DNA of 64,000 nt from NCBI GenBank assembly GCA_001001705.1, contig LCOG01000005.1, positions 40,714 to 104,713 on the forward strand, written 5' to 3'. The translations under genes were made by a program, and so were the position numbers. This DNA is from Parcubacteria group bacterium GW2011_GWA2_47_26. GTDB taxonomy: Bacteria; Patescibacteriota; Patescibacteriia; GWA2-47-26. Shown in pieces: positions 13,134-57,490 of the stretch. Below the pieces are notes generated by a model. That model saw only the letters and a list, made by a program, of their open reading frames with translations. It did no database searches and was not told the origin of the DNA. Numbering within the stretch: position 1 is the first letter of the stretch; the number at the start of each line of letters is the position of its first letter.

Positions 13134-13508
13134 ATGGCCAATATTAGAACATTCCATGATCTTGACGTGTGGCGGAAAGCACACGAGCTTGTATTATTGG
13201 TATATAAAATTACTAAAACATTTCCCAAAGAGGAGTTATATGTGTTGGTTGCACAAATCCGTCGTGCCGCTATATCCATTACCGCGAATATAGTAGAAGG
13301 ATTCCGAAGAAAAACACTTAAAGATAGCTTAAATTTTTATCGGATGGCAGATGCCTCATTAGAAGAACTTAAATATCATATTTTTCTTTCACATGACCTT
13401 GGGTATATTTCGGATAGTGAATATAATGTTATAGTTTCTCTATGCGAAGAAGTGGGAAAGTTGCTTACGCGATGGATTCAGAGTCAAGAAACGTATCTCA
13501 ATGCTTAA
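13134..13508 (+). CDS. Four-helix-bundle protein (23S rRNA intervening-sequence protein family)
   Basis: 124 aa. FHDLDVWRKAHELVLLVYKITKTFPKEELYVLVAQIRRAAISITANIVEGFRR...ASLEELKYHIFLS is characteristic of this family. Confidence 0.85.
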   Translation: MANIRTFHDLDVWRKAHELVLLVYKITKTFPKEELYVLVAQIRRAAISITANIVEGFRRKTLKDSLNFYRMADASLEELKYHIFLSHDLGYISDSEYNVIVSLCEEVGKLLTRWIQSQETYLNA

Positions 13509-13547: not shown

Positions 13548-14381
13548 ATGGAATTTATCTGTAAGCACGATCCGTCTGATCCAAACCACTTGATTTGCGA
13601 ATCAAAGCGGTCGCCGGTTTTTGAATGGCTGCGTGGGCGATGGCAACAGTTTTATTGTGCGGGTCCGAGTTGTCCAACGCATAAGGCTTACACGCATTTG
13701 GTTGTGGATATTTTTTTGGTAATTGCGGTTGCGGGATTGGTGGTGGCGAACCTGGTTTTTTTGTCAAGGGGGAGGGGTGGGGATAAAGTCGGCTCAAACA
13801 GTCCTCGCGCACAAACTGCGACTCTGGCCACTATCCGTGGGGGAGAAGAAGAGGTGGAAAAATCCCAGCCGAATCTTTTTAGTGGTGAAGAGAATAAAGA
13901 GGAAAGTCTACAGTATTCTGGACAATCGGAGTTATTTTTAGAAGGAGAGGCGTTGTATTTTTCAATGGAGGGCGAGCAATTGGGACGGGGGCCGTGGCCA
14001 TTGCAAGCGGGGCAGGAAACTAAAATCAAGGTGTTTTTGCGGGCGAATACTGGTAGAGATTTTGAAGGTGTGGTCGTAAGCGGGAAATTGGGGCCAAATG
14101 CGGCCTGGACGGGTTTTGCGCCGCAAGGTCGCGGGCTAGTTTATGAACCGGCAAGCCAGATAGTGCGCTGGCGAATTACTTGGTCAGATAGGCCTGGTTC
14201 TAGCACGAGGGCGGTGTTTGAAGTGGCGATTACCCCGGATTTTAGCCAAATTCAAGAGGGCCAGGTTTTAATTATGGAGGATTTGAAAATACGAGCGAAA
14301 AGTCTGGTTAGTGGCGAGAGTAAGACGGTACTTGCCCCAGATGTGATTTTGGACATGACAACTGGAAGTGTGTTAAAATAA
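13548..14381 (+). CDS. Membrane-anchored hypothetical protein (single TM plus beta-rich ectodomain)
   Basis: 277 aa. TM HLVVDIFLVIAVAGLVVANLVFL. I recognise no diagnostic motif. It lies directly upstream of the giant surface protein gene. Confidence 0.5.
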   Translation: MEFICKHDPSDPNHLICESKRSPVFEWLRGRWQQFYCAGPSCPTHKAYTHLVVDIFLVIAVAGLVVANLVFLSRGRGGDKVGSNSPRAQTATLATIRGGEEEVEKSQPNLFSGEENKEESLQYSGQSELFLEGEALYFSMEGEQLGRGPWPLQAGQETKIKVFLRANTGRDFEGVVVSGKLGPNAAWTGFAPQGRGLVYEPASQIVRWRITWSDRPGSSTRAVFEVAITPDFSQIQEGQVLIMEDLKIRAKSLVSGESKTVLAPDVILDMTTGSVLK

Positions 14382-20400: not shown

Positions 20401-21017
20401 CTCCTGCGGCGGCGCCAGCTCCGGCTCCCGCTCCAGCCGCCGCACCAGTAGCTATACTTATCCACGATCCTTCACGAGTTGAGGAACTAATCTCTAGGAT
20501 CGGAGTATCCCGCAATCAATCTGAAGAAGCGCGGTATAATGCTCTGGTTCGCTCGGACGCTCTAGCCTTTAGAGTGGGTCTCACCGAAGAACAGCGCACA
20601 ACGCTCACCAACTTCGTAGCTTATGGCGTCTCGGCCAAGACCAAGAATTTAGGGTCTGGGGAGCGGCGAGCCGTACTGCGGGATTATCTGGAAACTGTGG
20701 GACGGGCTAACGTAAGTTGGGAAGATGTGGAGCGCATGACGCAAGGGATAAAGCCCGTAAGCCGCAACCTTGAAAAGGAACGCGCCCAAGTTGCTGCGGC
20801 TCTGCGTATATTTACGAGACTTTATGTCCATCGCCCGAACTTCCAGGATGCGGAAGAAGATCTAGCTTGGAATACCTTAATGTACCGCATTCGCTTTACC
20901 CGCGATTTAGCTAAAGAGCGCGAGGGTATTCAAGAGTTTAGAGCAGTATTTGGACGCATTCCGCGGTCAACCATGGATTGGGCAGTGGTAAGATTGCTCG
21001 GATACGTGAAGTCGTAG
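14457..21017 (+). CDS. Giant cell-surface protein (2186 aa): Ig-like/SbsA-like and CarboxypepD_reg-like beta domains, FN3, Pro-Ala linker, conserved C-terminal helical domain (candidate S-layer/adhesin)
   Basis: N-terminal anchor ITFFVVLTTILWAFGVPLGVFL. Repeated ITGTVVDGSATGIANVFVHAEP / ISGAIQDESGNGIQYAQVSA / VTGRITDGTSNLEGATATF modules. FN3-like PPAAPTNVQLTSNGSSVTLTWTDPSDVDLYRVEVLRNDGG. PA-rich tract. Confidence 0.8.
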   Translation: MQNPFTGFYLNFKKTIFRSREKARSGITFFVVLTTILWAFGVPLGVFLPTPVQQAQAAVTLTTDLVDFSASNVKPDPDGIGAGFQWGMTASSGETLTAVTVSLTAGAGFTNSDIAQCFILADTNQAVVDGTEQTDQFWLFDCSIGLNTLTLSATPPENRMNGAGNTYALPSSMTGRGTYELVFSLVLSGSATHGDQVTVSAVAGTTALALSSGNVTNAVYSRVLTADSQGPTVTGAGGPPNSQEFVPPDAVVDRVFNEALLGLMVGPSSVSLKRCTGMEGAGEAAVRAAAACTTLDSTNQCSGVTLSDSNTRISCAHSLLQTNSWYELRIANVTDAGGNALAAAHVNRFKTSGFFGGAGGTNTTPPRVNSTYPQGGDMFFKNANLSVRFPIGPEGDMSFNSDGGLAGSVNAGDLDAFVGGNPAVSLKQVVNFVPTTEVCTSISACVLQWEATPRVLIINPASDLVEGADYELCVRGSPNSLAVKNQVNQNMVGDYCTRFRVDSGATASDSTAPTLRSATLGNPTFPSNGATGVSIYTGELQAFFSEPLNSATVTLTNASLYIDTNSNGVPNDGETVLDSSALNLTYDSAGRAARFSPRTPLIANTRYCFRLTNGLTDPADIVFTASTNQCFTTAASESALVAPKLLFADADNYKIVAHFDQAVNSTQATTAANYTFECPVGVTVPLTGKTFVYRPPEVEIQGLGLQNGQTCRLTVSTNVTNFAGTAMDTTGGNNVANFVVQSSTTTGGFLGTTVADSTNFFGGMGGATAGTFWATPTRCEPRQRSANKATSFECEFPAPGAMLVGSTILLSFPSGFTLSTSAGNARITPASQSQWNSDLNSQESGTVTATASTDTVAKTITLTTAGAAVTSGSMLHFELDQITTPVTAAENQRVTMVVKDASGVKIGQTINPAPFSIQQGGSLSISGRVCKGSTVGGSCGVGDTAIASVKVFCNQMGGFMVGTAGSAFMGFQEATTDASGDWSMTGLTPGEYACNIPPSPTLLADLGGSPPFQPITLSSANRTGVDIRYKNMATATDSKTLTVNISGGSASTEVDVFCSAGGFDFEFSAPSMKAVTLDGTGAGSTTLRLQQNKNYDCGMGPHMAFEQFGTGGPPPLPTFTFMPPKPQIVNMDTDKTIIFAVQASNRSITGTVVDGSATGIANVFVHAEPVGCFDATSGEFKDCHGAFAQTNSNGTFSLAVVDGTYEVGADGPGLPPSTREIANVKGANVTGVTLKMVKSSTTISGAIQDESGNGIQYAQVSAEKRTITTGSDACDFANSRPSGGFADSPTDSSGNFTLYVSNGTWCLRAFSPSYGEVGTKTVTMSGTSLTGQNIAATAANFGTVTGTVTKAGSNVSGAFVNCYGSAGGNGGQTGGNGVYSIRVKLASSGSTTMTCDGFAPGIGPLGRATVTFAQGDTSKTQNFTIAGNAATITVTATGLTEGFCDARDSTGLGSGAPIQSGTATISAPAGTYTVRCGSPRTGPLTLTSSSATLTAGGTAAITATVPTLRTVTGRITDGTSNLEGATATFTDTTTKASFKVVSGNQSGSNNNLSGSNVPEGSYNVKVSKKGFEPAITTASVSGGNLTLSSAIAMTQATGTAGDTVTFPVQTDSAAYTGTAKVICSKDSKTVAVEIDSSTGNASADLANGIWSCKAIGDNGKQSTATNVTVSGGTLSGAAPTFAMDTSISGYTQKSESGTFGLSSGGLMKFNNLAVGSTAPEINVPTNAFSTTDSSTGKVEMKTDPTVVSIDPGADQNMVGSHGYDITPKDANGNKVSDTNSPVTITMPYTDADVTAAGVDESKLTLASYNTSSQTWESVSTTVDTTNNLLIASVSHFSSFGILGGVVTAATVGSSTSDLTPPAAPTNVQLTSNGSSVTLTWTDPSDVDLYRVEVLRNDGGSTPVTGDVRAIVEKGAQRYVDSSVQAGQTYKYIIKVRDTALNQRLTDEYTVAVQAPVAAAPGGAAPAAAPAAAPAAPAPVAPAPAAAPAPAPAPAAAPVAILIHDPSRVEELISRIGVSRNQSEEARYNALVRSDALAFRVGLTEEQRTTLTNFVAYGVSAKTKNLGSGERRAVLRDYLETVGRANVSWEDVERMTQGIKPVSRNLEKERAQVAAALRIFTRLYVHRPNFQDAEEDLAWNTLMYRIRFTRDLAKEREGIQEFRAVFGRIPRSTMDWAVVRLLGYVKS
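20313..20450 (+). repeat. Low-complexity Pro/Ala-rich linker-coding tract
   Basis: Encodes QAPVAAAPGGAAPAAAPAAAPAAPAPVAPAPAAAPAPAPAPAAAPVA. GC-rich, and it generates spurious antisense ORFs. Confidence 0.9.
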
Positions 21018-45530: not shown

Positions 45531-46637
45531 ATGCCGAAGTTATCAGTTCACTTAGTAACTTGGAACGGCGTAAAATATATTCCTTATCTTTTTGAGTCTT
45601 TGCGTAAGCAGAGTTTTAAAGATTGGGAGCTTTTGGTCATAGATAATGGGTCAGGGGATGGGACGAGTGAGGCGATTGAGAAAGAGCTGCAGAGTTTCCC
45701 TGCGCCTGCGCGATTTGTGCGCAATGAAAAGAATCTGGGATTTGCGCATGGACACAATCAAGCCGTGCACGCAACGCAAGGCGAGTATATTCAGCTTCTT
45801 AATCAAGATATGTATCTTGCGCAGGATTATTTTGAGAAGATTGTGGCCATGATGGAGGAGCATCCCGAGGCCGGGGCAGGGCAGGGGGTGTTGTTGAAAT
45901 GGGACTTTGGCAAAGCGTCTAGCGTCGAGCGTTTAGCGTCTAGTAATAGTTTGACTGATATTGTTGATACAATGGGGCTTAAAGTTATGCGTAATAGAAG
46001 GGTGGCAGATTGGAGGACGGGGAAATTATTAAACAATGTCATTGCGAGCGGAGCGAAGCAATCTCATAGGTGGGGTGAAGAGATCGCCACGACACCTTCG
46101 GTGTCTCGCGATGACGAGGTATACGAAGTCTTTGGTGTTTCTGGCGCCTTGCCGATTTATCGCCGCAAGGCGGTTGAGCAGGTCGCTTTTGAGGGCCAGA
46201 TGTTTGATGAGGATTTTTTTAGTTATAAGGAAGATGTGGATTTAGCCTTTAGATTGCGTGCCGCGGGATGGAAAGCGTATGTGGATCCGCAAGCGCAAGC
46301 TTGGCATGATCGCAGCGCGGCTGGGCCGCGTGAGATGTCTGATAAAGCGGCGCTTCAAAATCGGAAAACCAAGTCGGCTTTTGTAAATTATCATTCTTAC
46401 AAAAACCATGTCATGGTCTTGTTGAAAAATGAAAATCTTGCTAATTTTGCAAGAGACTGGCCGTGGATTTTATGGTACGAATTTAAAAAGTTTGTTTATC
46501 TTTTGCTATTGGATCGTGCGACATTGAAAGGATTAAAAGAGATAAAGAGGCTCCGGCCGCGTACGATGCAAAAGCGTAAGTTTATCACGAGTCATTATAA
46601 ATTAAAGCCGGAGGAGATGAGAAAGTGGTTCTGCTAA
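45531..46637 (+). CDS. Glycosyltransferase family 2
   Basis: LSVHLVTWNGVKYIPYLFESLRKQSFKDWELLVIDNGSGDGT...NLGFAHGHNQAV. One in-frame family-A element. Confidence 0.85.
   Translation: MPKLSVHLVTWNGVKYIPYLFESLRKQSFKDWELLVIDNGSGDGTSEAIEKELQSFPAPARFVRNEKNLGFAHGHNQAVHATQGEYIQLLNQDMYLAQDYFEKIVAMMEEHPEAGAGQGVLLKWDFGKASSVERLASSNSLTDIVDTMGLKVMRNRRVADWRTGKLLNNVIASGAKQSHRWGEEIATTPSVSRDDEVYEVFGVSGALPIYRRKAVEQVAFEGQMFDEDFFSYKEDVDLAFRLRAAGWKAYVDPQAQAWHDRSAAGPREMSDKAALQNRKTKSAFVNYHSYKNHVMVLLKNENLANFARDWPWILWYEFKKFVYLLLLDRATLKGLKEIKRLRPRTMQKRKFITSHYKLKPEEMRKWFC
46038..46115. repeat. Family-A variant element, in frame in GT2 (78 nt = 26 codons)
   Basis: GTCATTGCGAGCGGAGCGAAGCAATC...GTGTCTCGCGATGAC encodes VIASGAKQSHRWGEEIATTPSVSRDD. 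Confidence 0.85.
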
Positions 46638-46638
46638 T

Positions 46639-47499
46639 ATGTACGACATCGTAACAGTGACAGTCAATTACAAGATGAAAGACAAGGTCTTAGCGATGTT
46701 GCGGTCGCTTTTTCGCGATACGGAAAATAGGGACATTTCTAATTTTGCTGCGCAAAATTTAGAGACGTCCCTATTTCCTCGGGTGCAGTCGGTGGTTGTT
46801 GATAATGATTCCCGCGATAGCATTAAGGATGCACTAGTAAAAGAGTTTAGTCAGCGGATTATTTTTATTGATGCTGGTGCGAATATCGGATTTGGGCGCG
46901 GTAATAATTTGGCGCTTAAAAAATTTGAGGCAAAATATTATTTCATTGCCAACCCAGATTTAGTATTCATGGAAAATCAGCCGGACACAGTGGCGCGGTT
47001 GTATAAATTTATGGAAGACAATCCTAAAATTGGCATTGTTGCGCCGCGTTTGGTTTTGAAAAGTGGGGTTACCCAACCATCCTGCATGCGCTTCCCGCGC
47101 TTTTTTGATCAGCCGATTTACCGTCTTGGTCTTCATAAAAAATACGAGTGGGCGCGCCGGAGAGTGGAGTGGCTGCTTATGAAAGATTTTGACCACACAA
47201 AGAGCCAGCCAATTGATTGGGCGACTGGTGCGGCGTTTTTTGTGCGCGGAGATATGTTAAAGAAGGTCGGGTTTTTTGATGAGAGATACTTTATGTATTT
47301 TGAAGATTGCGATTTATGCCGGACATTCTGGTCGCGCGGCTGGCCAGTCTACTATAAAGGCGATATCGTAATCCAACACGGTCACGAGCGCGCCTCGGCA
47401 AAAGTGCCGGGGTTGAAATCAATACTTTTAAATCCATTGACGCGCATACATTTAAAGAGTTTGGTGAAGTATGCATGGAAGTGGAGAGGGAGGAATTAA
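46639..47499 (+). CDS. Glycosyltransferase family 2
   Basis: IVTVTVNYKMKDK...VVVDNDSRDS...NIGFGRGNNLAL. One in-frame family-B element. Confidence 0.85.
   Translation: MYDIVTVTVNYKMKDKVLAMLRSLFRDTENRDISNFAAQNLETSLFPRVQSVVVDNDSRDSIKDALVKEFSQRIIFIDAGANIGFGRGNNLALKKFEAKYYFIANPDLVFMENQPDTVARLYKFMEDNPKIGIVAPRLVLKSGVTQPSCMRFPRFFDQPIYRLGLHKKYEWARRRVEWLLMKDFDHTKSQPIDWATGAAFFVRGDMLKKVGFFDERYFMYFEDCDLCRTFWSRGWPVYYKGDIVIQHGHERASAKVPGLKSILLNPLTRIHLKSLVKYAWKWRGRN
46722..46778. repeat. Family-B palindrome, in frame in GT2
   Basis: GGAAAATAGGGACATTTCTAATTTTGCTGCGCAAAATTTAGAGACGTCCCTATTTCC encodes ENRDISNFAAQNLETSLFP. Confidence 0.9.
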
Positions 47500-47500
47500 T

Positions 47501-48646
47501 ATGCAACCGAAGGTTGGTATTATACTGATAAACTACAAAGATTACGCTAAACGGTTTTTGGCGGATTGCCGCGATAGTTTGCGATTGATTGATTATCCGA
47601 AAGATAAGTACGTCGTATATATTGTGGACAATGCGACGTCGCCTGAAACGCGGGCATATTTGCAGGAGATATATCCTGAAGCAGTGGTAATTCCGAATTT
47701 AGAAAATTCCGGGTGGGGAGGGGGGAATAATTTGGGTATTGAACAATCATTCAAGGACGGTTGCGAGGATGTGGTCTTGGCGAACATGGATGTGATTGTG
47801 CATAAGGATTGGCTAAAGGAGTTGGTCAGCGCGGCGTATAGTGATAGTGGCCAAGCCACAACGGAAAGTGGCTTGGCCACAAATCCGAGCGATTCTAAAA
47901 TCGGCATCGCGCAGTCAAAGCTTTTGCTTTGGCCAGTTGGCTCTGATGGAGTGCAGAGAATAAATTCACTTGGCAATGAGATTCATTTTTTGGGGTTTGG
48001 GTATTGCCGGGGGTATGGGGAAGAAAATAGGGACGTTTCTAATTTTGTTACGCAAAGTTTAGAAACGTCCCATTTTCCAGATATTCCTTACGCGTCGGGG
48101 GCGTCAATGTATGTGAAGGGCGAAGTTTTCAGAAAAATTGGACTTTGCAATCCGGCATTTTTCATGTACCACGATGATTTGGAAATATGCTTGAAGGCCA
48201 AGTGCGCTGGTTATCGAGTAGTACTGGCTCCCGCGTCAGTCATGTGGCACAAGTACGAATTTGGCAGATCAGTGCGCCAGATTTATTATATGGAACGCAA
48301 TAGATTGATCACGGTGCTGGAATTTTATAAAATTTCCACTCTGATTTTACTAGCTCCGATGTTTTCCGTAATGGAGCTGGGTTTGCTAGGTAGCTCGCTT
48401 GCGGGCAGATATGATAAAGCCAAGCTGCGCAGTTGGGCGTACTTTTGGCATTTTGATAATTGGAAAAAAATTTTTCAGGAACGGAGACGGATTCAAAGAC
48501 TGCGTACAATAAAAGACAGTGAATTAATGCGAGACTTTACTGGAAAAATTCTGTTTCAGGAAATTGCCAATCCTGTACTTCGCTATTTTGTTAATCCTGT
48601 TTTTAATGCTTACTGGCAAGTTGCGAAAAGGTTGATGTGGTGGTAG
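47501..48646 (+). CDS. Glycosyltransferase family 2
   Basis: GGAGGAATTAAT-ATG. VGIILINYKDYAKRF...VVYIVDNATSPET...NSGWGGGNNLGI. One REP hairpin and one family-B element in frame. Confidence 0.85.
   Translation: MQPKVGIILINYKDYAKRFLADCRDSLRLIDYPKDKYVVYIVDNATSPETRAYLQEIYPEAVVIPNLENSGWGGGNNLGIEQSFKDGCEDVVLANMDVIVHKDWLKELVSAAYSDSGQATTESGLATNPSDSKIGIAQSKLLLWPVGSDGVQRINSLGNEIHFLGFGYCRGYGEENRDVSNFVTQSLETSHFPDIPYASGASMYVKGEVFRKIGLCNPAFFMYHDDLEICLKAKCAGYRVVLAPASVMWHKYEFGRSVRQIYYMERNRLITVLEFYKISTLILLAPMFSVMELGLLGSSLAGRYDKAKLRSWAYFWHFDNWKKIFQERRRIQRLRTIKDSELMRDFTGKILFQEIANPVLRYFVNPVFNAYWQVAKRLMWW
47847..47880. repeat. REP-type hairpin (RAYT family F), in frame in GT2
   Basis: GTGGCCAAGCCAC-AACGGAAA-GTGGCTTGGCCAC encodes SGQATTESGLAT. 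Confidence 0.8.
48023..48078. repeat. Family-B palindrome, in frame in GT2
   Basis: GAAAATAGGGACGTTTCTAATTTTGTTACGCAAAGTTTAGAAACGTCCCATTTTCC encodes ENRDVSNFVTQSLETSHFP. Confidence 0.9.
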
Positions 48647-48650
48647 AGTT

Positions 48651-48767
48651 TAGCAAGTAAGCAGAGTAAGCAGAGTAAGCAGAGTAAGCAGAGTAAGCAG
48701 ATTAAGCAGATTAAGTACTAAGCAAATTGCCTAATCTGCCTAATCTGTCTATTGCTTAATTTGCTTA
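48651..48767. repeat. Family-C 9-mer hairpin, longest copy (AGCAGAGTA x4, AGCAGATTA x2, then the inverted arm)
   Basis: TAGCAAGTAAGCAGAGTAAGCAGAGTAAGCAGAGTAAGCAGAGTAAGCAGATTAAGCAGATTAAGTACTAAGCAAATTGCCTAATCTGCCTAATCTGTCTATTGCTTAATTTGCTTA. It fills the whole intergenic spacer up to the next ATG. Confidence 0.85.
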
Positions 48768-49846
48768 TGAAACGGGCTCTTATTGCCGCGGGCGGACGGG
48801 GAACGCGTTTGCGCCCAATCACTCATACAATAAACAAGCACCTGATTCCTTTGGCTAACAAGCCCATGATTTTTCATGCCATTGAAAAGCTTGCAGATGC
48901 CGGCATAGATGAAATCATAATCAATACCAATCCAGGCGATACTGAACTCTCAAAGTTTGTAGGCGATGGCAGTCGGTGGAAAGTAAAAATAAAATATGTG
49001 GAACAGCAAGGCGGGGCATTGGGGGTTGCTCATGTGGTAAAAAATGCGGAGTCATATTTTCATGGCGAACCTTTTATTTACTTTTTGGGAGATAATATAG
49101 TTTTAGGCAGTCTCAAGCCGCTTGTAGAAAAATTTAGACACGAACACTTAGATGCCTGTTTTATTTTTGCAAAAGTCAGAGATCCGCAGCGCTTTGGCGT
49201 GCCGGAAATTCGCGACGGCAAATTGATTAGAATTATTGAAAAGCCGGAGAACCCGCCGACAGATTTTGCCCAAACCGGGGTATATCTTTACAGTTCAAAG
49301 ATTTTTGAGGCATTAAAAGACCTTAAGCCGTCGGCCCGCGGCGAGCTGGAGATTGCCGATGCCAATACAGCCATGATTGAGAAAGGGTTTAAGGTTGGGT
49401 GGGTGGAGACGGAGGGGTGGTGGAAAGATACGGGCAAGCCCGAAGATCTTTTGGAGGGCAACCAGTTTATCTTGGCTAATTTGCGTTTTGAAGACAATAA
49501 AAACCAGGCTCAAATTGGAAATCGTGTGATCGTCCAAGGGAAAATTCAAATTGGAAAAGGGACAGTGCTTGATGAAAATGTGCTTGTGCGGGGGCCGGTC
49601 ATTATCGGTGAAAATTGCATTATTAAAAATAGTTATATTGGGCCGTATACGGCGATAGGAAATGATGTGGAGATTTATAATACTGAAATAGAGAACTCAA
49701 TTGTTTTTGAAGCGGCAGATATAAATGCTTCAACGCGAATCGTGGATAGCATTATCGGTTATAACGCGACTATTACGCCGGCGCATGCCACTTTGCCCAT
49801 GGGGCACAAGCTCATTATTGGAGATCACACGGTGGTGGAGATATAG
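48767..49846 (+). CDS. Sugar-1-phosphate nucleotidylyltransferase (glucose-1-phosphate thymidylyltransferase-like, long form with C-terminal left-handed beta-helix)
   Basis: ALIAAGGRGTRLRPITHTINKHLIPLANKPMI (GxGTRLxPxT). C-terminal hexapeptide-like repeats. ATG at 48767. Confidence 0.8.
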   Translation: MKRALIAAGGRGTRLRPITHTINKHLIPLANKPMIFHAIEKLADAGIDEIIINTNPGDTELSKFVGDGSRWKVKIKYVEQQGGALGVAHVVKNAESYFHGEPFIYFLGDNIVLGSLKPLVEKFRHEHLDACFIFAKVRDPQRFGVPEIRDGKLIRIIEKPENPPTDFAQTGVYLYSSKIFEALKDLKPSARGELEIADANTAMIEKGFKVGWVETEGWWKDTGKPEDLLEGNQFILANLRFEDNKNQAQIGNRVIVQGKIQIGKGTVLDENVLVRGPVIIGENCIIKNSYIGPYTAIGNDVEIYNTEIENSIVFEAADINASTRIVDSIIGYNATITPAHATLPMGHKLIIGDHTVVEI

Positions 49847-49853
49847 AAGGGGG

Positions 49854-51191
49854 TTATTGTAGGTCAAGTTTCCACAGGCCGGTTTTATTTTCGCGGGCGC
49901 CTAGAATCAAAAGTTGCTTGCCATCCGTTGATAAGACGGTTTTTTTGATATTTTCAAAATTGGCGAGGTCCCAGGTATTTTGTTTATCACGCAAATCCAG
50001 CTCAATTGCTTGCATTTTATTTTTTAGGGTAAGCAGGATAACAGAGCCTTGGGGCAGGGGAGTAACCTCGCGTATTTCTTCAAGGAGGCGGATAATAAGT
50101 TTGGCCTCATTTTTTTGCGGATCATATTGCCAGACTTCGTGGGGCGAAAAAGTAAAGAGGGTTGATTTTTCGCCGCGTTGCCAAACCGCGTTAGTCCCCT
50201 CCAGTTCAGCGACAATAGCTTGTTTTGCCAGATCAATAAGCAGGATTTTACCCGCTTTAAGTTCGCGGAGAACCACGAAGCTGCCGTTAATGGCCAGAAA
50301 CCTATAGTCGCCGACTGACAATTCCACGGCGATGTTTGCCGGATCGTCGGGCAGGGTCGCTAATTTATAAACCCCGCCTTGCAGAGAGATAGTTAGAATT
50401 TTATGTCCCACCAAATCAAAGTCTTCAACGGCCTCGCTGATTTTGTTGACGTTATCAGAAATAAGGTCACTGCTCCAGAGTGTTTTTTGTGATAAGAGCA
50501 GAAGGCGTCCGTCTGGTCTAAATTTAATTTTATCTACTGCAGGTTTATCGGTGTTTTTAGCGGCGGTTGGCAAAGTCACTCCCGTCACGCGAGTTTCTTC
50601 GTCTTCAATGGCAGCTAAAGAATAATCTGCGGATTTAATCAATAAGCGCCGCGGGCGATTCTGAAATTGTTCTATTGTGGGCGCGCTGTTCAAAGCCCCG
50701 CGCCATAAGAGACTCGCTGTATTCAAAGACGGGTGCAACTGTTTTAATTCATAAAGAGTATCGGATGATTCAAGAGTAAAAACAGTATCGTCGTGGTCCA
50801 TGGCGTAAAAATCCGCAAGGTTTGCTTCAGCTAGAATTTGCGGTTGGGTATTTTTAAGTAGCAATATGTCAATTGCAAAAGTTGTTTTTTCACTTTCTAC
50901 TTCAAGGGTTTTGCCCCAGGAATGATAGCCGTCGCGCTCCAAGGCAATCTCATAGCTAGATGGCGTCAGGTTCAAAATGTAGGCTGGGGTGCGTTCTTTG
51001 CGGGACCTGTCGTTTAAAAATATTTTCGCGCCTTTGGGAGTGGATTCAATGATCATGAGGCCGGTTTTTACGAATTTTTTCTGTTTAAAGCTGTAGCGGT
51101 ATCCAGCGGTATAGCCGACGATAATCGGGACGGCAATAATAAAAAGCGCGACTAGAAAATAGAAAAAAAGACGACGTACGAGCAAAGGCAT
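49854..51191 (-). CDS. PEGA-domain membrane-anchored protein
   Basis: N-terminal TM FFYFLVALFIIAVPIIVGY. PEGA module GLMIIESTPKGAKIFLNDRSRKERTPAYILNLTPSSYEIALERDGYHSW. Confidence 0.7.
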   Translation of the reverse strand: MPLLVRRLFFYFLVALFIIAVPIIVGYTAGYRYSFKQKKFVKTGLMIIESTPKGAKIFLNDRSRKERTPAYILNLTPSSYEIALERDGYHSWGKTLEVESEKTTFAIDILLLKNTQPQILAEANLADFYAMDHDDTVFTLESSDTLYELKQLHPSLNTASLLWRGALNSAPTIEQFQNRPRRLLIKSADYSLAAIEDEETRVTGVTLPTAAKNTDKPAVDKIKFRPDGRLLLLSQKTLWSSDLISDNVNKISEAVEDFDLVGHKILTISLQGGVYKLATLPDDPANIAVELSVGDYRFLAINGSFVVLRELKAGKILLIDLAKQAIVAELEGTNAVWQRGEKSTLFTFSPHEVWQYDPQKNEAKLIIRLLEEIREVTPLPQGSVILLTLKNKMQAIELDLRDKQNTWDLANFENIKKTVLSTDGKQLLILGARENKTGLWKLDLQ

Positions 51192-51240
51192 ATATTATAT
51201 TATTGCTTTGGGGGTTACTTTATTGTATAGTAATCATACT

Positions 51241-52515
51241 ATGTCAAAGTTTGTTATACAAGGTGGACAGCGGCTTGGTGGAGAAATTAGGATTTCCGGG
51301 ATGAAAAATGCCGTAACCGCGCTTTTGACGGCAACGCTTTTGACGCGGGAGGAGTGCAGATTGGATAATGTACCGCGGATTGCGGATGTTGAAACAATGC
51401 TTACGATCATACGCAGTGCAGGCGCAAAAGCGCAATGGGTTTCCGATCACGAGGTTGCGGTTGAGGCGAAGGGCATTGATTCGTTAAAATTGAACAAACA
51501 CATGGTTTGTGCCATGCGGTCATCCGTGCTTCTGGCCGGGCCGCTTTTAGCGCGTACGGGCAGTCTTAATTTGCCTGAACCGGGTGGTTGTATAATTGGC
51601 AATCGTCCTTTAGATACGCATCTCGTAGCGTTTGAAGCAATGGGAGTTAAAATAGAGCGAAGCAATGGCGTTTATGAATTGCAAGGCAAGCCAAAAGCGG
51701 CGGAAATAGTCCTGCCGGAATTTTCTGTTACTGCTACAGAGAATGTCTTGATGGCGGCGGTGCTTGCGCCGGGCAAGACTGTAATCAAACTGGCCGCGGC
51801 TGAACCGCATGTGCAAGATCTCTGCAGTATGCTTAAGAAAATGGGAGCGCGTATTGCGGGCATGGGGACGCATACATTAGTTATAGAAGGCGCGCAGGAG
51901 CTGCGGGGCGTGAAACACACGGTAATTCCGGATCAGATAGAAGTCGGAACCTTTGCGGCGTTAGCAGGAGCGACCCATAGCTCGCTGACACTTTATCCTA
52001 TTGTTGCTGAACATTTAGATAGTGTATTTACCGCACTAAAGCGGGCAGGGGTTGGGTATGAATCAAGAATCAAGAATCAAGAATCAAGAATTAGCGAGTT
52101 GAAGATTTTTCCTTCTTCTAGTCTTTCGGGATTTAAAATCCAAGCTTTACCTTATCCCGGTTTTCCAACGGATTTGCAAGCGCCATTTGCGGTGCTTGCG
52201 ACACAGTGCAAAGGCACCAGCCTTATTCACGATCCTTTATTTGAGGGGCGCATGGGTTATGTGCATGAGCTGATTAAAATGGGGGCCAATGCCATTATCG
52301 CTGATCCGCATCGCGTAATTATCGCAGGGCCGACGTCACTCTCTGGCCAAGAAATTAAGAGTCTTGATCTGCGCGCGGGCGCCACGCTTGTGATTGCGGG
52401 ATTAGTTGCGGAGGGAGAAACAATATTGCATGATGCCGAGGTTATTGATCGAGGATATGAGAATTTGGAGGTGCGCTTAAAAGCAATTGGGGCGGAGATT
52501 AAAAGGGTAAATTAA
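51241..52515 (+). CDS. murA: UDP-N-acetylglucosamine 1-carboxyvinyltransferase
   Basis: MSKFVIQGGQRLGGEIRISGMKNAVTALLTATLL...PEPGGCIIGNRPLDTHL...PYPGFPTDLQAPF. Contains a 7-nt tandem repeat. Confidence 0.95.
   Translation: MSKFVIQGGQRLGGEIRISGMKNAVTALLTATLLTREECRLDNVPRIADVETMLTIIRSAGAKAQWVSDHEVAVEAKGIDSLKLNKHMVCAMRSSVLLAGPLLARTGSLNLPEPGGCIIGNRPLDTHLVAFEAMGVKIERSNGVYELQGKPKAAEIVLPEFSVTATENVLMAAVLAPGKTVIKLAAAEPHVQDLCSMLKKMGARIAGMGTHTLVIEGAQELRGVKHTVIPDQIEVGTFAALAGATHSSLTLYPIVAEHLDSVFTALKRAGVGYESRIKNQESRISELKIFPSSSLSGFKIQALPYPGFPTDLQAPFAVLATQCKGTSLIHDPLFEGRMGYVHELIKMGANAIIADPHRVIIAGPTSLSGQEIKSLDLRAGATLVIAGLVAEGETILHDAEVIDRGYENLEVRLKAIGAEIKRVN
52060..52092. repeat. Family-E heptamer tandem (AATCAAG x4) inside murA
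   Basis: GAATCAAGAATCAAGAATCAAGAATCAAGAATT encodes ESRIKNQESRI. Confidence 0.85.
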
Positions 52516-52525
52516 GTGTGAAGAA

Positions 52526-52550
52526 CGCAGGCTGAAGACCTGCGACTACA
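52526..52550. repeat. Family-H hairpin
   Basis: CGCAGGCTGAAGACCTGCGACTACA, between murA and the S41 protease gene. Confidence 0.6.
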
Positions 52551-52560
52551 ATCCTTAATT

Positions 52561-53802
52561 ATGTTTTATACCAAACCGCGCAAGCATAATTTTATTAAAC
52601 GTTTTGTCAGCATTTATCTATTTCTGACTGTTTTCGGTGTTGTTTTTCTTTCCGGTCTTTATGTTGGTTGGCGCGAGTCGGATACGCTTGCCGGAAATCA
52701 GCAAGGCCGGGTTTTGGAAAAAGATAAATTGCCGCCCTATCTTTTGCAAAATGTTGATTTTAGTTTATTCTGGGATGTTTGGAATTTAGTAAAAGAGAAA
52801 TCGCTACAACAGCCGATCCCAGATACCCAATTATTTTATGGAGCTGTGTCAGGCATTGTGGCCTCGCTAGGCGATCCTTACTCGGTATTTTTTGATCCGG
52901 AAATGACGCGTAAATTTATGGAGGAGTTGAATGGGCGTTTTGATGGCATTGGCGCCGAGATTGGAATTAAGAAGGACCAGCTTGTCATTGTCGCGCCGCT
53001 TCCGGAAACGCCTGCGGAGGGAGCGGGACTTAAAGCCGGAGATAAGATTCTCAAGATTGATGATAAGATTACGCTGGGCATGCCTATTGATGTGGCGGTT
53101 TCCAATATACGCGGTCAAAAAGGCACTACTGTAGTTTTGAAAATTTTGCGCAATGGCTGGCAGGAGGCGCGCGATTTTTCAATTGTCCGCGATGAGATCC
53201 ATGTGCAATCGGTAACTTCAAAAGAGCTTGAAAATGGTATTGGCTATATCCGTATAATTCATTTTAATGAATCAACGCAGGCGGCATTTGAAGAAGCCCT
53301 GAACGCGACGATCGCAAAAACTCCCAAAGGTATTATTTTGGATATGCGCAACAATCCCGGCGGGCTTTTAGAAGCCGCAGTGCGAGTTGCCGCAGAATGG
53401 ATAAATCCGCCGGGCACGGTAGTTATTCAGCGATCTCAAGATGGTCAACGCCAGGAATTCGCCGCTCAAGGTCAGGCGCGGTTGCGCGGAATCCCGACAG
53501 TCGTTTTGGTAAATCAAGGCACAGCCTCGGGCGCGGAGATTGTGGCTGGCGCGCTTCAAGATTACAAGCAAGCGACGGTTCTTGGCGAGAAAACATTTGG
53601 CAAAGGGTCGGTGCAGGATTTTGAACAGTTGCGCGGCGGATCAGCCTTAAAAATTACAATTGCGGAGTGGCTAACTCCCAACGGCCGCGCGATTAATAAC
53701 GAGGGTATTGCGCCGGATGTTGAAGTGAAAATGAAGCGGGAGGATTACGAAAAGGATAAAGATCCGCAATTGGATGAGGCTATTGACTTTTTGCGGAAAT
53801 AA
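52561..53802 (+). CDS. Carboxyl-terminal processing protease (S41 family, PDZ-containing)
   Basis: N-terminal TM. FDGIGAEIG. PDZ motif AGLKAGDKILKIDD. DMRNNPGGLLEAAV. NQGTASGAEIVAGALQD. Confidence 0.9.
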   Translation: MFYTKPRKHNFIKRFVSIYLFLTVFGVVFLSGLYVGWRESDTLAGNQQGRVLEKDKLPPYLLQNVDFSLFWDVWNLVKEKSLQQPIPDTQLFYGAVSGIVASLGDPYSVFFDPEMTRKFMEELNGRFDGIGAEIGIKKDQLVIVAPLPETPAEGAGLKAGDKILKIDDKITLGMPIDVAVSNIRGQKGTTVVLKILRNGWQEARDFSIVRDEIHVQSVTSKELENGIGYIRIIHFNESTQAAFEEALNATIAKTPKGIILDMRNNPGGLLEAAVRVAAEWINPPGTVVIQRSQDGQRQEFAAQGQARLRGIPTVVLVNQGTASGAEIVAGALQDYKQATVLGEKTFGKGSVQDFEQLRGGSALKITIAEWLTPNGRAINNEGIAPDVEVKMKREDYEKDKDPQLDEAIDFLRK

Positions 53803-53820
53803 TAGTAGAGTGAAAAAACT

Positions 53821-55197
53821 ATGTCACCTGAAAGGCGATCACCAGAGGGAAGTTTGCCACTATCCGAAACTCGTGCCGCAGAATTAGTAGAGAGTCCATC
53901 CGCAATGGATGACGCGGTGCGTTTTCATGACGCGGTTACCGAATGGCTTGATCTTTCCCGCGAGCTTGAACAAGAAACGCGACAGCCCAAAACAGAAACT
54001 AGTGAAGAAAAACCTGGACGTATTTGGGGATTAGAGCGCAGGGAGCCGAAACAAGCCGTGCCAAAGGCCACTCTTCAAGATAAAATAAACGCCATTTCCG
54101 TAGGCCAGGTGGGCGATCTTTTACCGCGCGCGACCGCAGAAAAAAGCAAGGTTAGAGATGAACGAATTTTGACGCTTGAAGCGCGGCTTGCCGAACTGGA
54201 TCGCGAAATCGCACGCTATAAAGACCGTCCGGATCTGCGTCCGGAAGTGCGCGCCGAATTTAAAAAAGAACGGCGTTTTCAACAAGTTGGCCGCGAGCTG
54301 GACAATTTGGAAACTTATGAAGACGAGCTTGATCGGCGCGAGTTTGAATTGTTGAAAACCCGCAAAGGAAAATTAGGCAGTACTGACCGGACAATACTCC
54401 AAAATTCAGCCGCGCTTCATGAAACAATTCAAAATCGCGTTACGGCTCTTGAAACCGGCCCGGAAACCGCTCTTGCCGCGCGTTTGCATGAGCTTGCCCG
54501 CTACCGCGACGGCCTTGTTCGCGATCGCTTTGCCGAAACCCCTTCGCGCAAAAAATACCTGGAAATGATTCGTCGGCTTTGGGAAGAAGGCAAGAATGTA
54601 TTTCTCACCGGCGCGACCGGCACTGGCAAAACCGAGCTTTTTATCTACCTTGCCAAGAAACTCTACGGCCAGCCACCGGAAATTATCCGCGGCTCGGAAC
54701 GCACCGGCGCGCCGGAGATATTCGGCAAAACACTGTTGCGCGCCACGCCCGAAGGCGGCACCGAAACCTATTTCCAACCCGGCCGCTACACAGCCGCGAT
54801 TGACGCCGGCAGACCGCTCATCTTTGACGAATTCAATCTGCTGGAGCCCAAAACCCGTTTTGAACTCAAGGAATTGTATAACCGCAAACCCGGCGATACA
54901 GTTACGGTGCAAGAAGACACTGGCAAACCGCACACAATACAAGAAGGTTTTGGATTTGGCGCCACTGCCAATATCAAAAGCGAAAAACACAAAGAGCGGT
55001 TTGAACTGGATCCGGCCGAATCCCGCGTGTTTGAAATGCGGCGCGTGCCTTATGTGCCCAAAGAAGAACTCTATGATCTCGTGCTTTCCAAACTCGGGGA
55101 TAAGCGCGGCGGTGTGCGCCTCCATATCCGCGACGCGCATCTGACGCTCCAGCATTTGGCCGAAGCCGCGGAAATGATCCAAGGCGCGCGCATTTAG
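53821..55197 (+). CDS. AAA+ ATPase (AAA_5/MoxR-McrB-like core) with a long N-terminal coiled-coil region; possibly frameshifted from a longer gene
   Basis: Walker A LTGATGTGKTE and Walker B RPLIFDEFNLL. The stop at 55195 follows a (GC)4 tract, and frame 0 stays open from here through the Nudix gene. Confidence 0.7.
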   Translation: MSPERRSPEGSLPLSETRAAELVESPSAMDDAVRFHDAVTEWLDLSRELEQETRQPKTETSEEKPGRIWGLERREPKQAVPKATLQDKINAISVGQVGDLLPRATAEKSKVRDERILTLEARLAELDREIARYKDRPDLRPEVRAEFKKERRFQQVGRELDNLETYEDELDRREFELLKTRKGKLGSTDRTILQNSAALHETIQNRVTALETGPETALAARLHELARYRDGLVRDRFAETPSRKKYLEMIRRLWEEGKNVFLTGATGTGKTELFIYLAKKLYGQPPEIIRGSERTGAPEIFGKTLLRATPEGGTETYFQPGRYTAAIDAGRPLIFDEFNLLEPKTRFELKELYNRKPGDTVTVQEDTGKPHTIQEGFGFGATANIKSEKHKERFELDPAESRVFEMRRVPYVPKEELYDLVLSKLGDKRGGVRLHIRDAHLTLQHLAEAAEMIQGARI

Positions 55198-55454
55198 GCA
55201 CGCAAACCGCGCTGTACGAAGAAGGCGCCGGCGCCAAGAAAAAGCATGCCACACTGGAGAAGGCCGTGCTGGATCAAGGCCGGGTTTTAGGGATGCTCCA
55301 AGGCTGGCCGGTGGCCGATGCCAAGGGACAGACCTTTCAAGAATACCTGAACGATCATTTGCGGGATTTTCTAAATCAAGAGGACTTTCCGGAAAAAGAT
55401 CGCAAGCTCTTGCTTAAAATTTTTATCACCAAAGGATTTTTTGCAGGAATTAAT

Positions 55455-55931
55455 ATGAAGTCGGATAATAAAAAAAGGCTGATGCACATAGAATTTTCTG
55501 CGGGCGGCATAGTTTATCGCAAGACGCCGCACGGGATAGAGATAGCTTTTCTTTTAGACCCGTATCGAAAGTGGACATTTGCCAAGGGGCATATTGAGCG
55601 CGGGGAAAATGTGCAGGCCGCGGCGGTGCGGGAAGTAAAAGAGGAAATGGGAATTCGCAAAATTCGCGTGGTGACTAAGTTGGGACGCATTGATTGGTGG
55701 TTTAGAGAACGCCGACAAGGAGCGCATTCTCCACGTGGCTCTTTAATCCATAAGTTTGCCTATTATTTTTTAATGGAAGTTCCGGATAGGACCCAGCTTC
55801 GGCCGCAAAAGAGCGAGTTGATTCGGGCAGTAACTTGGGTTCCCTTGGAACAGGCTTTGAAATTTTCAAGTTACAAAGATGTGCGGCCGGTTTTAAAAAG
55901 AGCGATTGACATTTTGCAAAGTAGAAGGTAG
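55455..55931 (+). CDS. Nudix hydrolase
   Basis: Perfect Nudix box GHIERGENVQAAAVREVKEEMGI. AGGAATTAAT-ATG start context. The track ORF (55266..55931) extends 63 codons upstream in the same frame. Confidence 0.85.
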   Translation: MKSDNKKRLMHIEFSAGGIVYRKTPHGIEIAFLLDPYRKWTFAKGHIERGENVQAAAVREVKEEMGIRKIRVVTKLGRIDWWFRERRQGAHSPRGSLIHKFAYYFLMEVPDRTQLRPQKSELIRAVTWVPLEQALKFSSYKDVRPVLKRAIDILQSRR

Positions 55932-55950
55932 ACTAGGTTGCGAGGAGGAG

Positions 55951-56181
55951 ATGATGACGCGAGATATCCGTGATGATAAGTGCCCGAATGGGGCGCCGTA
56001 CGACCTCGAGACCATGCTCTGCCGTTGTGGTGCAGGCCATCCCAACCCTGACTTTGAGGCGCACACGGAGGACGCTCGAGACCATTACACGGTAAAATGC
56101 GGCATTTGCGGACAATCGTTCAGCACCGGCGACCACTCGTGTTGCTGGAGGAGGGCACTGGACGGCACCAAGCCAACTTAG
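55951..56181 (+). CDS. Small Cys-rich (zinc-ribbon-like) protein
   Basis: 76 aa. KCPNG...CRCG...KCGICG...SCCW cysteine pattern. GAGGAGG SD. GC-rich. Confidence 0.5.
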   Translation: MMTRDIRDDKCPNGAPYDLETMLCRCGAGHPNPDFEAHTEDARDHYTVKCGICGQSFSTGDHSCCWRRALDGTKPT

Positions 56182-56268
56182 CACATTTATTTTATAGTAC
56201 TGTTGATGCACGTTGCCCTTTTTTCATGCAAGAGTAGGGCATCTTTTTTATTTCGTGATCCGTGGCAT

Positions 56269-56296
56269 TTGACAAACCTGCATTTTCGTGTAGTAT
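56269..56296 (+). promoter_or_regulatory. Sigma-70-like promoter upstream of the metallophosphoesterase gene
   Basis: TTGACA (56269-56274), a 16-nt spacer, then TAGTAT (56291-56296). Confidence 0.4.
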
Positions 56297-56332
56297 AGAG
56301 AGCTATCCTCTCATGAGGAGAAAGGAGTGGTG

Positions 56333-57169
56333 ATGATGATTTACTTTACCAGTGATCCCCACTACGGCTTTTCTTCGCAAGGGGATAGGGCTGTAGAAGC
56401 GCTTGCCGAATACGTGGCGAATCATGGGTCCGATGGGGATGTGCTTCTTCTCGGCGGTGATCTCGGAGGTGATGACAAGACATTGCAAGAATGTCTTGCG
56501 CTCTTTGAGCGATTCCCAGGCCACAAGTTTGCAGTGCCTGGCAATCACGATGTGTGGGTTGAGTCCGTGGAGACCTCGTTTGACCGCTACAGGCGCCTTT
56601 CCGAGATCTTTCGCGCCGCGGGGTTTCATCCGCTTCAGGAAGAACCCGCGGTCGTGGGTGGCGTGGGGTTCGCGGGCTGCATGGGCTGGTACGATTACTC
56701 GTTTCGCGACGAGGAGCTCAACATCCCGCTCCACTTCTACGAGACGAAGACCTATCCGGGAGAGATGGAGCCGCTCTGGAACGATGCCGGGTACGCGCGG
56801 TGGGGCCGAGATGACTGTATGGTCACCGAGTGGCAGGCCAAAAACCTTGCGCAACATCTCCGGAGTCTGCGAGATGTTCGCGAGGTGATCGTGCTGACCC
56901 ATCACGTTCCGACGAAAAACCTCCTTGTCTATCCGCGGGAGCTTGTGCCGCGGCGCTCGCGCTTCGCAAACGCGTTTTTGGGGAGCGAGCGATTCGCCGA
57001 GGTGATCATGGGTTATCCGTCGGTTCGTCTCGCGGTCTGTGGTCACATTCACATGGGAAGTACTGCCGATATCGATAAGACGCGATTTCTTTCTATCGGC
57101 AGTAGCTACGACCAAAAGGAACTGGTCGCCTACAATGGCAAGAACATCACACGGCAGACGTTTGGCTAA
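56333..57169 (+). CDS. Calcineurin-like metallophosphoesterase
   Basis: IYFTSDPHYG, LLLGGDLGGD, VPGNHD, LTHHVP and CGHIHMG motifs. AAGGAG SD. GC-rich (a long antisense ORF appears in the track). Confidence 0.85.
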   Translation: MMIYFTSDPHYGFSSQGDRAVEALAEYVANHGSDGDVLLLGGDLGGDDKTLQECLALFERFPGHKFAVPGNHDVWVESVETSFDRYRRLSEIFRAAGFHPLQEEPAVVGGVGFAGCMGWYDYSFRDEELNIPLHFYETKTYPGEMEPLWNDAGYARWGRDDCMVTEWQAKNLAQHLRSLRDVREVIVLTHHVPTKNLLVYPRELVPRRSRFANAFLGSERFAEVIMGYPSVRLAVCGHIHMGSTADIDKTRFLSIGSSYDQKELVAYNGKNITRQTFG

Positions 57170-57259
57170 GGGGAACGAGTATCTGGGCGCCAGCAATGGT
57201 GCCTTTACTTTTTTTAAAACCAATGATAGGCTATCTTAACAAATCATTTTTTTAGCATT

Positions 57260-57481
57260 ATGAAAACCGGAGAATTTCATGAATCACTTCTCGAAAATCT
57301 CAAACAACAACTAGAGGATGAAACCACCTCACTTCTTCGTATTAAAGATGCTGCGCAGGAAGCGCTCGCGCTTACCGAGGCATATGGGGAAGCAGTTTCA
57401 GATGAAGCGCTTCAAGCGTTTGCGCGAAAGCATCCTGAATGTGCTACGGCTCTTCAGGGGCAAAGTAGAGAGACTAAATAG
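57260..57481 (+). CDS. Small acidic helical protein, unknown function
   Basis: 73 aa, directly upstream of (10 nt from) the Fic gene. No canonical (S/T)xxxE(G/N) anti-Fic motif found. Confidence 0.4.
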   Translation: MKTGEFHESLLENLKQQLEDETTSLLRIKDAAQEALALTEAYGEAVSDEALQAFARKHPECATALQGQSRETK

Positions 57482-57490
57482 TTTATTGCC

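Follow-up and report, generated by a model that had tools for sequence, protein, structure and literature searches.

A frameshifted and truncated AAA+ ATPase gene, probably the remnant of a diversity-generating retroelement target, beside a Nudix gene in a Parcubacteria genome

Among the targets of diversity-generating retroelements (DGRs) in the candidate phyla radiation (CPR), the AAA ATPase–CLec architecture is described as the most common in a passage of PMC10907252 that cites Paul et al. 2017, and the 'UVR4' DGR targets of CPR match the AAA domain of midasin (PMC5758913). MoxR-class ATPases related to these in fold are known from the NorQ–NorD and CbbQ–CbbO systems, where each acts together with a VWA partner. 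Here we describe an ATPase gene of this kind in a 64,000-nt stretch of Parcubacteria group bacterium GW2011_GWA2_47_26 (contig LCOG01000005.1, positions 40,714 to 104,713; hereafter the window), in which an AAA+ ATPase open reading frame (ORF) ends just after a (GC)4 tract and a second open frame continues from there into a Nudix domain. An earlier note, made from the sequence, had proposed that a 2-nt slip would fuse the two into one AAA+–Nudix protein. We conclude, with a probability of about 0.8, that positions 53821-55448 hold a young, non-functional remnant of a MoxR-class (NorQ/CbbQ/midasin-like) DGR-target ATPase, lying beside an independent Nudix gene.

Like the DGR-target ATPase–CLec family of CPR, the remnant has an AAA_5 core and the family-specific segment, and it is 58-75% identical to the closest full-length members. 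Unlike them, the window copy is frameshifted, occupies a foreign position between an S41 peptidase gene and the Nudix gene, and is without the variable C-terminal domain, template repeat (TR), bAvd gene, reverse transcriptase and VWA partner. The best structural matches are NorQ (9qh4, 9qh7 and 9qhd) and CbbQ (6l1q), and the homologue loci encode a downstream VWA protein. However, sequence identity to NorQ and CbbQ is only 13-18%, no VWA partner lies near the window copy, and the family has an added helical N-terminus of ~230 residues and, in its long forms, a DGR-diversified C-terminus. The frameshift itself resembles slipped-strand pseudogenisation at short repeats, in that one repeat unit has been gained in a coding GC run and a premature stop follows; nothing about it is unusual, and the lesion appears too recent for secondary decay to be detectable.

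The frameshift and the ATPase family

The site reads GGCGCGCGC, with the (GC)4 tract followed by a TAG stop at 55195-55197, and the first ORF ends …ATG ATC CAA GGC GCG CGC ATT TAG, giving a product of 458 aa. Frame 0 (codon starts divisible by 3) is open from 55104 to a stop at 55929-55931 and reads …HLGTQTALYEEGAGAKKKHATLEKAVLDQGRVLG…; it is the frame of both the GTG-started ORF at 55266 and the ATG at 55455, which has AGGAATTAAT directly 5'. The Pfam matches are AAA_5 for the first ORF (residues 259-399, E=1.6e-11) and NUDIX for the second, at an E of about 1e-19 to 2e-19. The coordinates given in the earlier note were all confirmed, as was its prediction that removal of one GC unit would join the ORFs into a protein of about 700 aa, the exact length being 702.

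A search with this repaired 702-aa sequence returned 50 homologues, mostly 820-920 aa long, of which those bearing a name are called 'AAA family ATPase [Patescibacteria group bacterium]'. AAA_5 is annotated on all 50 except P0034, and P0050 has extra repeat domains. Because the homologues cross the site without a change of frame, the window carries a +2 insertion, (GC)3 to (GC)4, relative to the ATPase family. The two extra bases are 55189-55190, without which the sequence becomes GGC GCG CAT TTA, containing (GC)3. The window codons CAA GGC GCG [CG] CAT TTA GGC stand opposite CAA GGA GCG TAC CTC GGC in locus L006 and CAG CAA GCG TTT TTG GGA in L014, so that the window, once the extra CG is left out, encodes Q-G-A-H-L-G where the family pattern is Q-x-A-[F/Y]-L-G. 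Loci L001, L006, L014 and L015 carry this pattern in a single frame, with the GC repeat absent at the site. Proteins P0001 (…ESAEMIQKAFLGTQTAMYEEGGGTKKKYASLEKAVLDPG…EDFPEKDRKLLLKILITKGFFQGR) and P0008 (…MIQGAYLGV…) align across it gap-free once 2 nt are removed, and in tblastn the ATPase frame is matched up to 55188 and the other frame from 55182 or 55191 to 55448, with an identity to P0007 of 74% before and 75% after the shift. The simplest cause of the insertion would be the gain of one repeat unit by slippage. The window contains 4 copies of (GC)4, with 3.76 expected, which is chance level. Programmed ribosomal frameshifting was also considered and was rejected, since inspection of 55180-55197 found no slippery heptamer of the form X XXY YYZ, all homologues are single-frame, and the two-frame arrangement is not conserved.

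In the 458-aa product a helical N-terminal region precedes the AAA_5 core, and after the first two lid helices come the wrong residues R and I and then the stop. Up to 55188 the remnant is 58-75% identical to its homologues, its match to the closest full-length members spans residues ~30-542, and it retains Walker A and B together with the family invariants G264, T266, K270, E272, D336, E337, N384 and R402. Across 55197-55454, frame 0 encodes 86 residues that are 74-80% identical to homologous ATPases (80% to P0001) and that include the invariant residues L478, G486, G494, G502, D526, R527 and F539. This out-of-frame segment (LEKAVLD, EDFPEKDRKLLLKIF, KGFFAG) forms the second half of the AAA+ lid region and ranks with the most strongly conserved stretches of the family. 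The family-specific segment LEKAVLDPG…EDFPEKDR…KGFFxG is present in the window, +2 out of frame with the core. The earlier note had rightly called frame 0 open and protein-like as far as the Nudix domain; judged by homology, the open frame over 55198-55454 is the coding remainder of the ATPase lid region and not a chance one.

An AlphaFold (AF2) model of the ATPase, built from a 31-sequence alignment (predicted local distance difference test, 81.9; predicted template-modelling score, 0.78), shows a helical N-terminal region, an α/β core at residues 259-408 and lid helices at 414-425, 436-458 and 485-536, with the frameshift mapping to the end of the second lid helix. Foldseek aligned the model with whole NorQ and CbbQ chains over ~291 columns, with a template-modelling score of about 0.8 normalised to the target; the match fits residues roughly 240-535, a range estimated from alignment length and target size. 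A profile search of PDB sequences gave midasin at 3e-19 and NorQ at 1.6e-9, and CbbQ was matched as well. On this model, the segment lost through the frameshift would belong to the AAA+ module, and the 458-aa product would be a MoxR-class AAA+ module without about half of its lid region.

At its other end the remnant begins MSPERRSPEGS…, resembling the MPEQRSPAPEE… of P0004, and its 5' end is therefore native; the ATG lies 18 nt past the S41 stop. The GC content of the remnant is 0.526, against 0.465-0.487 in its neighbours, and 19% of equal-sized windows are equally high.

At the 3' end, homology to the family stops at GFFAG (55448), and the homologues run on for ~320 residues. No match to these last ~320 residues was found in the window by tblastn with P0001, P0007, P0034 and P0029, nothing being aligned beyond 55448-55523. 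DGR parts lie 3' of the ATPase gene in all four homologue loci inspected, where the gene orders are ATPase (856 aa)–TR–bAvd–RVT_1–…–VWA (L001), ATPase (849 aa)–bAvd–RVT_1–329 aa–VWA–Fic (L007), ATPase (868 aa)–bAvd–RVT_1–VWA–124 aa–L25 (L019) and, in L006, ATPase (881 aa) and two more target genes, with TR and bAvd at the contig end. The variable region (VR) at the gene 3' ends repeats the nearby TR, and the mismatches fall at TR adenines in 12/12, 13/14, 12/13, 14/16 and 13/14 cases. Such adenine-specific mismatches are the signature of a DGR, and the inspected members are therefore true DGR targets. In L001, L007 and L019 the VWA gene comes after RVT_1 with zero to two genes between; the three proteins are 644-674 aa long and mutually 42-53% identical, and the combination of family ATPase and VWA protein fits a NorQ/NorD-like pair. 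Within the 64-kb window, no reverse transcriptase, VWA protein (E<=1) or target C-terminus was found.

Two further observations concern the DGR parts. L006:8001-14823 is a multi-target DGR array, in which a single TR (14267-14375, beside bAvd) matches three VRs, carried by the 881-aa ATPase and by two paralogues of ~290 aa, and nucleotidyltransferase/HEPN toxin-antitoxin-like pairs lie in between. The window itself holds one bAvd-like ORF (Table 1), 40 kb from the remnant and without an adjoining reverse transcriptase, and this may be another DGR leftover or an unrelated member of that family.

Table 1. Positions in the window of the ATPase remnant, the Nudix gene and associated features
Feature	Position	Strand	Basis
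ATPase remnant before the frameshift (annotated as 458-aa hypothetical protein UX98_C0005G0081)	53821..55197	+	AAA_5 match, homologue identity
(GC)4 tract with +2 frameshift	55184..55191	+	codon comparison with L001, L006, L014, L015; tblastn frame change
Out-of-frame ATPase continuation (repaired residues 457-542)	55191..55448	+	homology, conserved columns, AF2 helices
Putative Nudix ribosome-binding site AGGAATT, coinciding with the junction	55446..55452	+	spacer kept from relatives
Predicted stand-alone Nudix hydrolase gene, 158 aa	55455..55931	+	NUDIX domain, box, orthologue starts
Annotated 221-aa ORF UX98_C0005G0082, GTG start, hypothetical	55266..55931	+	public annotation
S41 (C-terminal processing) peptidase gene, upstream neighbour	52561..53802	+	Pfam families
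124-aa bAvd / 23S-rRNA-IVP-like four-helix-bundle ORF	13134..13508	+	27% identity to L001 bAvd

The Nudix gene and its neighbourhood

The Nudix box of the predicted hydrolase, GHIERGENVQAAAVREVKEEMGI, is intact when compared with the consensus GX5EX7REUXEEXGU, and the domain is full-length. Orthologues are 157-166 aa long and 58-75% identical from end to end, and all ten that were aligned start no more than 3 residues from the ATG at 55455; the 63-residue N-terminal extension of the annotated 221-aa ORF occurs in none of the ten. The annotated ORF appears to be too long, its first 63 codons being the tail of the ATPase remnant, and the GTG call at 55266 probably arises from the LEKAV codons (CTG GAG AAG GCC GTG), which mimic a Shine-Dalgarno sequence and a start. 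Comparison with these orthologues indicates that the Nudix gene is an independent, conserved gene, translated from the ATG at 55455 through its own AGGAATT site. Production of the Nudix domain alone from this ATG had been the alternative offered in the earlier note, and the ten orthologue starts bear it out.

No natural fusion of AAA_5 with Nudix was found. PF00293 is annotated on 0 of the 50 ATPase homologues and PF07728 on 0 of the 120 Nudix homologues listed, and when the 244-aa 'linker plus Nudix' sequence was run by phmmer against 1.84 billion representatives, there was none among the best 150 matches, each of which covers one half of the query or the other. P0417 and P0432, which had appeared as candidates for junction-spanning fusions, were rejected as plain AAA_5 proteins with a chance extension of the alignment, and the longer Nudix proteins P0314 and P0311 have N-termini that are unrelated. 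The two comparisons suggested in the earlier note, of homologous loci and of fusion architectures in the databases, gave no fusion: the ~50 ATPases read through the site, and the Nudix gene is separate in relatives. The slip would indeed join the frames, as proposed, but the 86 residues in between are the ATPase's own lid, in a gene cut ~320 codons short. The continuity of the open frame between the ATPase tail and Nudix is coincidental, and the ATPase abuts Nudix only through sitting between two genes that are neighbours in related genomes.

The genes flanking the remnant have their nearest relatives in Candidatus Uhrbacteria, at ~63-73% protein identity; the S41 peptidase is 65-66% identical to its Uhrbacteria orthologues, and a search for a closer relative by means of this peptidase gave nothing above 66%. 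The order NTP-transferase–PEGA–MurA–S41 peptidase–Nudix is common to four distinct relatives (L008-L010, from Ca. Uhrbacteria RIFCSPLOWO2_01_FULL_47_24; L011/L012, from GCA_016187515.1; L017; and L018, where a small additional gene separates MurA from S41), with a spacing from S41 to Nudix of −4 to +57 nt. The window is collinear with L008 over 45531-55925, the ATPase piece excepted. Since the relatives have S41 directly before Nudix and the window keeps the AGGAATT of their spacer, the ATPase piece appears to be a lineage-specific insert.

The spacer between S41 and Nudix reads TGA ATT AGGAATT ATG in L008-L012, and the corresponding window sequence is …GGA TTT TTT GCA GGA ATT AAT ATG. AGGA at 55446-55449 belongs both to the codons that end the ATPase piece (GCA GGA) and to the ancestral spacer between S41 and Nudix, and ATPase homologues have G at the junction position (GFF[AQSN]G); six bases (ATTAAT) separate the ATPase tail from Nudix. 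The junction thus has a microhomology of 4 nt, and may have been formed by illegitimate recombination or deletion. In its start position, its upstream S41 gene and its AGGAATT site, the window gene is like the stand-alone Nudix genes of Uhrbacteria and related Patescibacteria (e.g., A3B21_03130, 162 aa), from which it differs in being parted from S41 by 1.65 kb of ATPase remnant and in its downstream genes. A scan for promoters and terminators gave weak consensus matches only and no terminator between the remnant and Nudix, and Rfam had no matches in the window.

Synteny with Uhrbacteria stops directly after the Nudix gene. In place of flavokinase, RibE and RibH, window positions 55932-58936 hold a Cys-rich ORF of 75 aa, a metallophosphoesterase (56327-57169), an ORF of 73 aa and a Fic-domain protein of 481 aa. 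At third codon positions the metallophosphoesterase gene has a GC content of 0.66, compared with ~0.45 in the neighbouring genes, and a 306-aa antisense ORF overlaps it; these genes together may form a foreign island. The gene for ribosomal protein L25 follows at 59104-59715, 3.2 kb past Nudix, and a homologous 102/124-aa ORF that precedes L25 in L001 and L019 is absent there in the window. One of the Nudix proteins mentioned above, P0311 (359 aa), combines the C-terminal part of MurA (EPSP_synthase) and a Nudix domain in one called protein, which suggests that the MurA–S41–Nudix region of another relative is rearranged or mis-called.

Proposed history and alternative explanations

The exact 458-aa product is also encoded on L002 (JGI), on L003 and L004 (ENA, MEGAHIT-style; L004 is from SRR1658344, groundwater) and on L005 (ANAN16 scaffold set). 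Identity to the window is 100% over 15 kb for L002 and L004 and 100% over the aligned 10 kb for L003, and in these three the (GC)4 and both junctions are the same as in the window. L005 differs by ~13 substitutions and a replaced segment, yet agrees with the window in the (GC)4 and, as far as the ATG, in the ATPase–Nudix junction. There, 126 unrelated nt (L005:11639-11764) stand in place of window 55459-55620, the first ~55 Nudix codons; they encode a Nudix-like N-terminus and box (…GEILVVKPNYKEGWILPGGTVDENESPLTAAVREVKEE) with no ATG and a TGA before, and their source was not found in the window. In L005 the repaired ATPase frame would end 4 codons past the junction, giving a 549-aa ORF separate from Nudix. 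This variant may be a strain-level recombinant or a scaffold chimera. No variant in (GC)n length occurs among the five contigs. A scan of JGI metagenome contigs for the exact flanks with 4-14 nt between them gave no match, and it missed the known JGI contig too. From another bin of the same study, P0292 is identical to the window ATPase, on a contig that ends before the frameshift site.

Two lesions would account for the state of the remnant. In one, slippage in the GC run from (GC)3 to (GC)4 would end translation at the TAG at 55195, inside the AAA+ lid region; in the other, a 3' truncation at codon ~544 would have taken away the final ~320 codons, the variable region among them, along with the TR, bAvd, reverse transcriptase and VWA-partner genes. 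The whole cassette may have been inserted between S41 and Nudix and its 3' part then deleted, or a duplication junction may have formed between ATPase codon 544 and the Nudix Shine-Dalgarno sequence, with losses afterwards. A present function of the remnant is unlikely, because half of the lid region, the diversified domain and the VWA partner have been lost. Of the columns with a conservation of at least 90% in the other 30 sequences, the remnant deviates in 1 of 69 before the shift and in 1 of 17 after it, the mean for intact members being 6.8%, which would place either the lesions or the acquisition of the fragment in the recent past. The earlier note had listed a recent pseudogenising slip among its options, and this one is supported by the single-frame homologues and by the lack of further decay after the shift.

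Several points weigh against this history. Apart from the two lesions the remnant looks healthy, so that loss of function has to be argued from the lesions and not from decay. The truncation alone need not kill the protein, given natural short members of the family (P0030, 575 aa; P0033, 561 aa; P0048, 620 aa) that end ~30 residues past GFF. Insertion followed by deletion leaves the position of L25 unexplained: in L001 and L019 the intact cassette likewise has L25 (L001:17022-17714, L019:13677-14450) shortly downstream, which may be a coincidence or a trace of the original locus. Finally, the assemblies may share samples from one aquifer and so may not be fully independent.

The main alternative is that the truncated ATPase still works, or worked until a very short time ago, as a 'short form' lacking the DGR-diversified domain, either because the 458-aa product still acts or because the frameshift is a strain-level lesion in a live gene of ~549 aa. 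Natural forms of 561-620 aa end soon after the GFF motif, all invariant catalytic residues are retained with no excess of substitution, and the repaired frame of L005 gives a tidy 549-aa ORF apart from Nudix. However, these natural short forms are only ~40% identical to the remnant, while the closest relatives seen whole, at 58-75% identity, are long forms of 834-869 aa (P0007 and P0034, which start part-way, and P0004, apparently cut by a contig end, are left out of these lengths). The 64 kb contain no counterpart of the VWA partner found in L001, L007 and L019, the frameshift removes four helices of the lid region with the seven invariant residues that they carry (L478 to F539), and it is present on every sampled contig. 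We regard a working short form as unlikely.

The frameshift itself could be an error of sequencing or assembly, the real sequence being (GC)3, with a single ORF that starts at 53821 and reaches Nudix or a stop nearby. The perfectly preserved downstream frame would fit such an error, and a shared bias is formally possible in that all contigs apparently come from Rifle groundwater. But the window and four contigs from different assemblers agree, including L005 with its substitutions and replaced segment, and to our knowledge a four-unit GC dinucleotide is not an error hotspot in short-read consensus; an indel of this kind, one of the options of the earlier note, is thus very improbable. Still less can be said for its option of a dinucleotide-repeat switch, in which the tract would be a contingency (phase-variation) or recoding site toggling between split products and an AAA+–Nudix fusion. 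A slip of ±2 would restore the frame, stop-free into Nudix in the window variant. Against this, tract length is constant over the five contigs and the tract occurs at chance frequency, homologues are without the repeat, no natural fusion was found, the L005 frame meets a TGA before Nudix, and the site has no slippery heptamer. As far as we know, contingency tracts have about six or more units, and four units are far shorter than the known dinucleotide tracts of this type. Similarly hard to credit is a remnant that is still alive, either through slippage of ±2 yielding a 702-aa AAA+–Nudix chimera or through a start at GTG 55266, which has GGAG 6 nt upstream, yielding a 221-aa Nudix protein with the ATPase lid segment as a recruited N-terminal extension; if true, a new gene architecture would here be seen arising in a streamlined CPR genome.

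Elsewhere in the window, ARAGORN calls a tRNA-Thr(GGT) at 20337-20413 on the minus strand, inside a plus-strand ORF of 2186 aa (14457-21017), where Rfam, at gathering score, gives no tRNA; the tRNA call is then false, or else the ORF is partly spurious. The GC content of window positions 2001-6000 is 0.59-0.61, against a window mean of 0.487.

Significance for annotation and for the ATPase family

The reading of 53821-55448 as a young remnant offers no new protein architecture and no switch; it describes an ordinary pseudogene remnant of a known CPR family of DGR-target ATPases. Its main value lies in annotation. UX98_C0005G0081 (458 aa) would be better called part of a frameshifted, truncated pseudogene, and UX98_C0005G0082 (221 aa) would be better called a 158-aa Nudix gene that has been annotated 63 codons too long. 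For the family, the locus would show on a small scale, and cleanly, how a reduced CPR genome loses a DGR target cassette: with no decay so far in the rest of the gene, by deletion to a fragment and then a slip at a short repeat.

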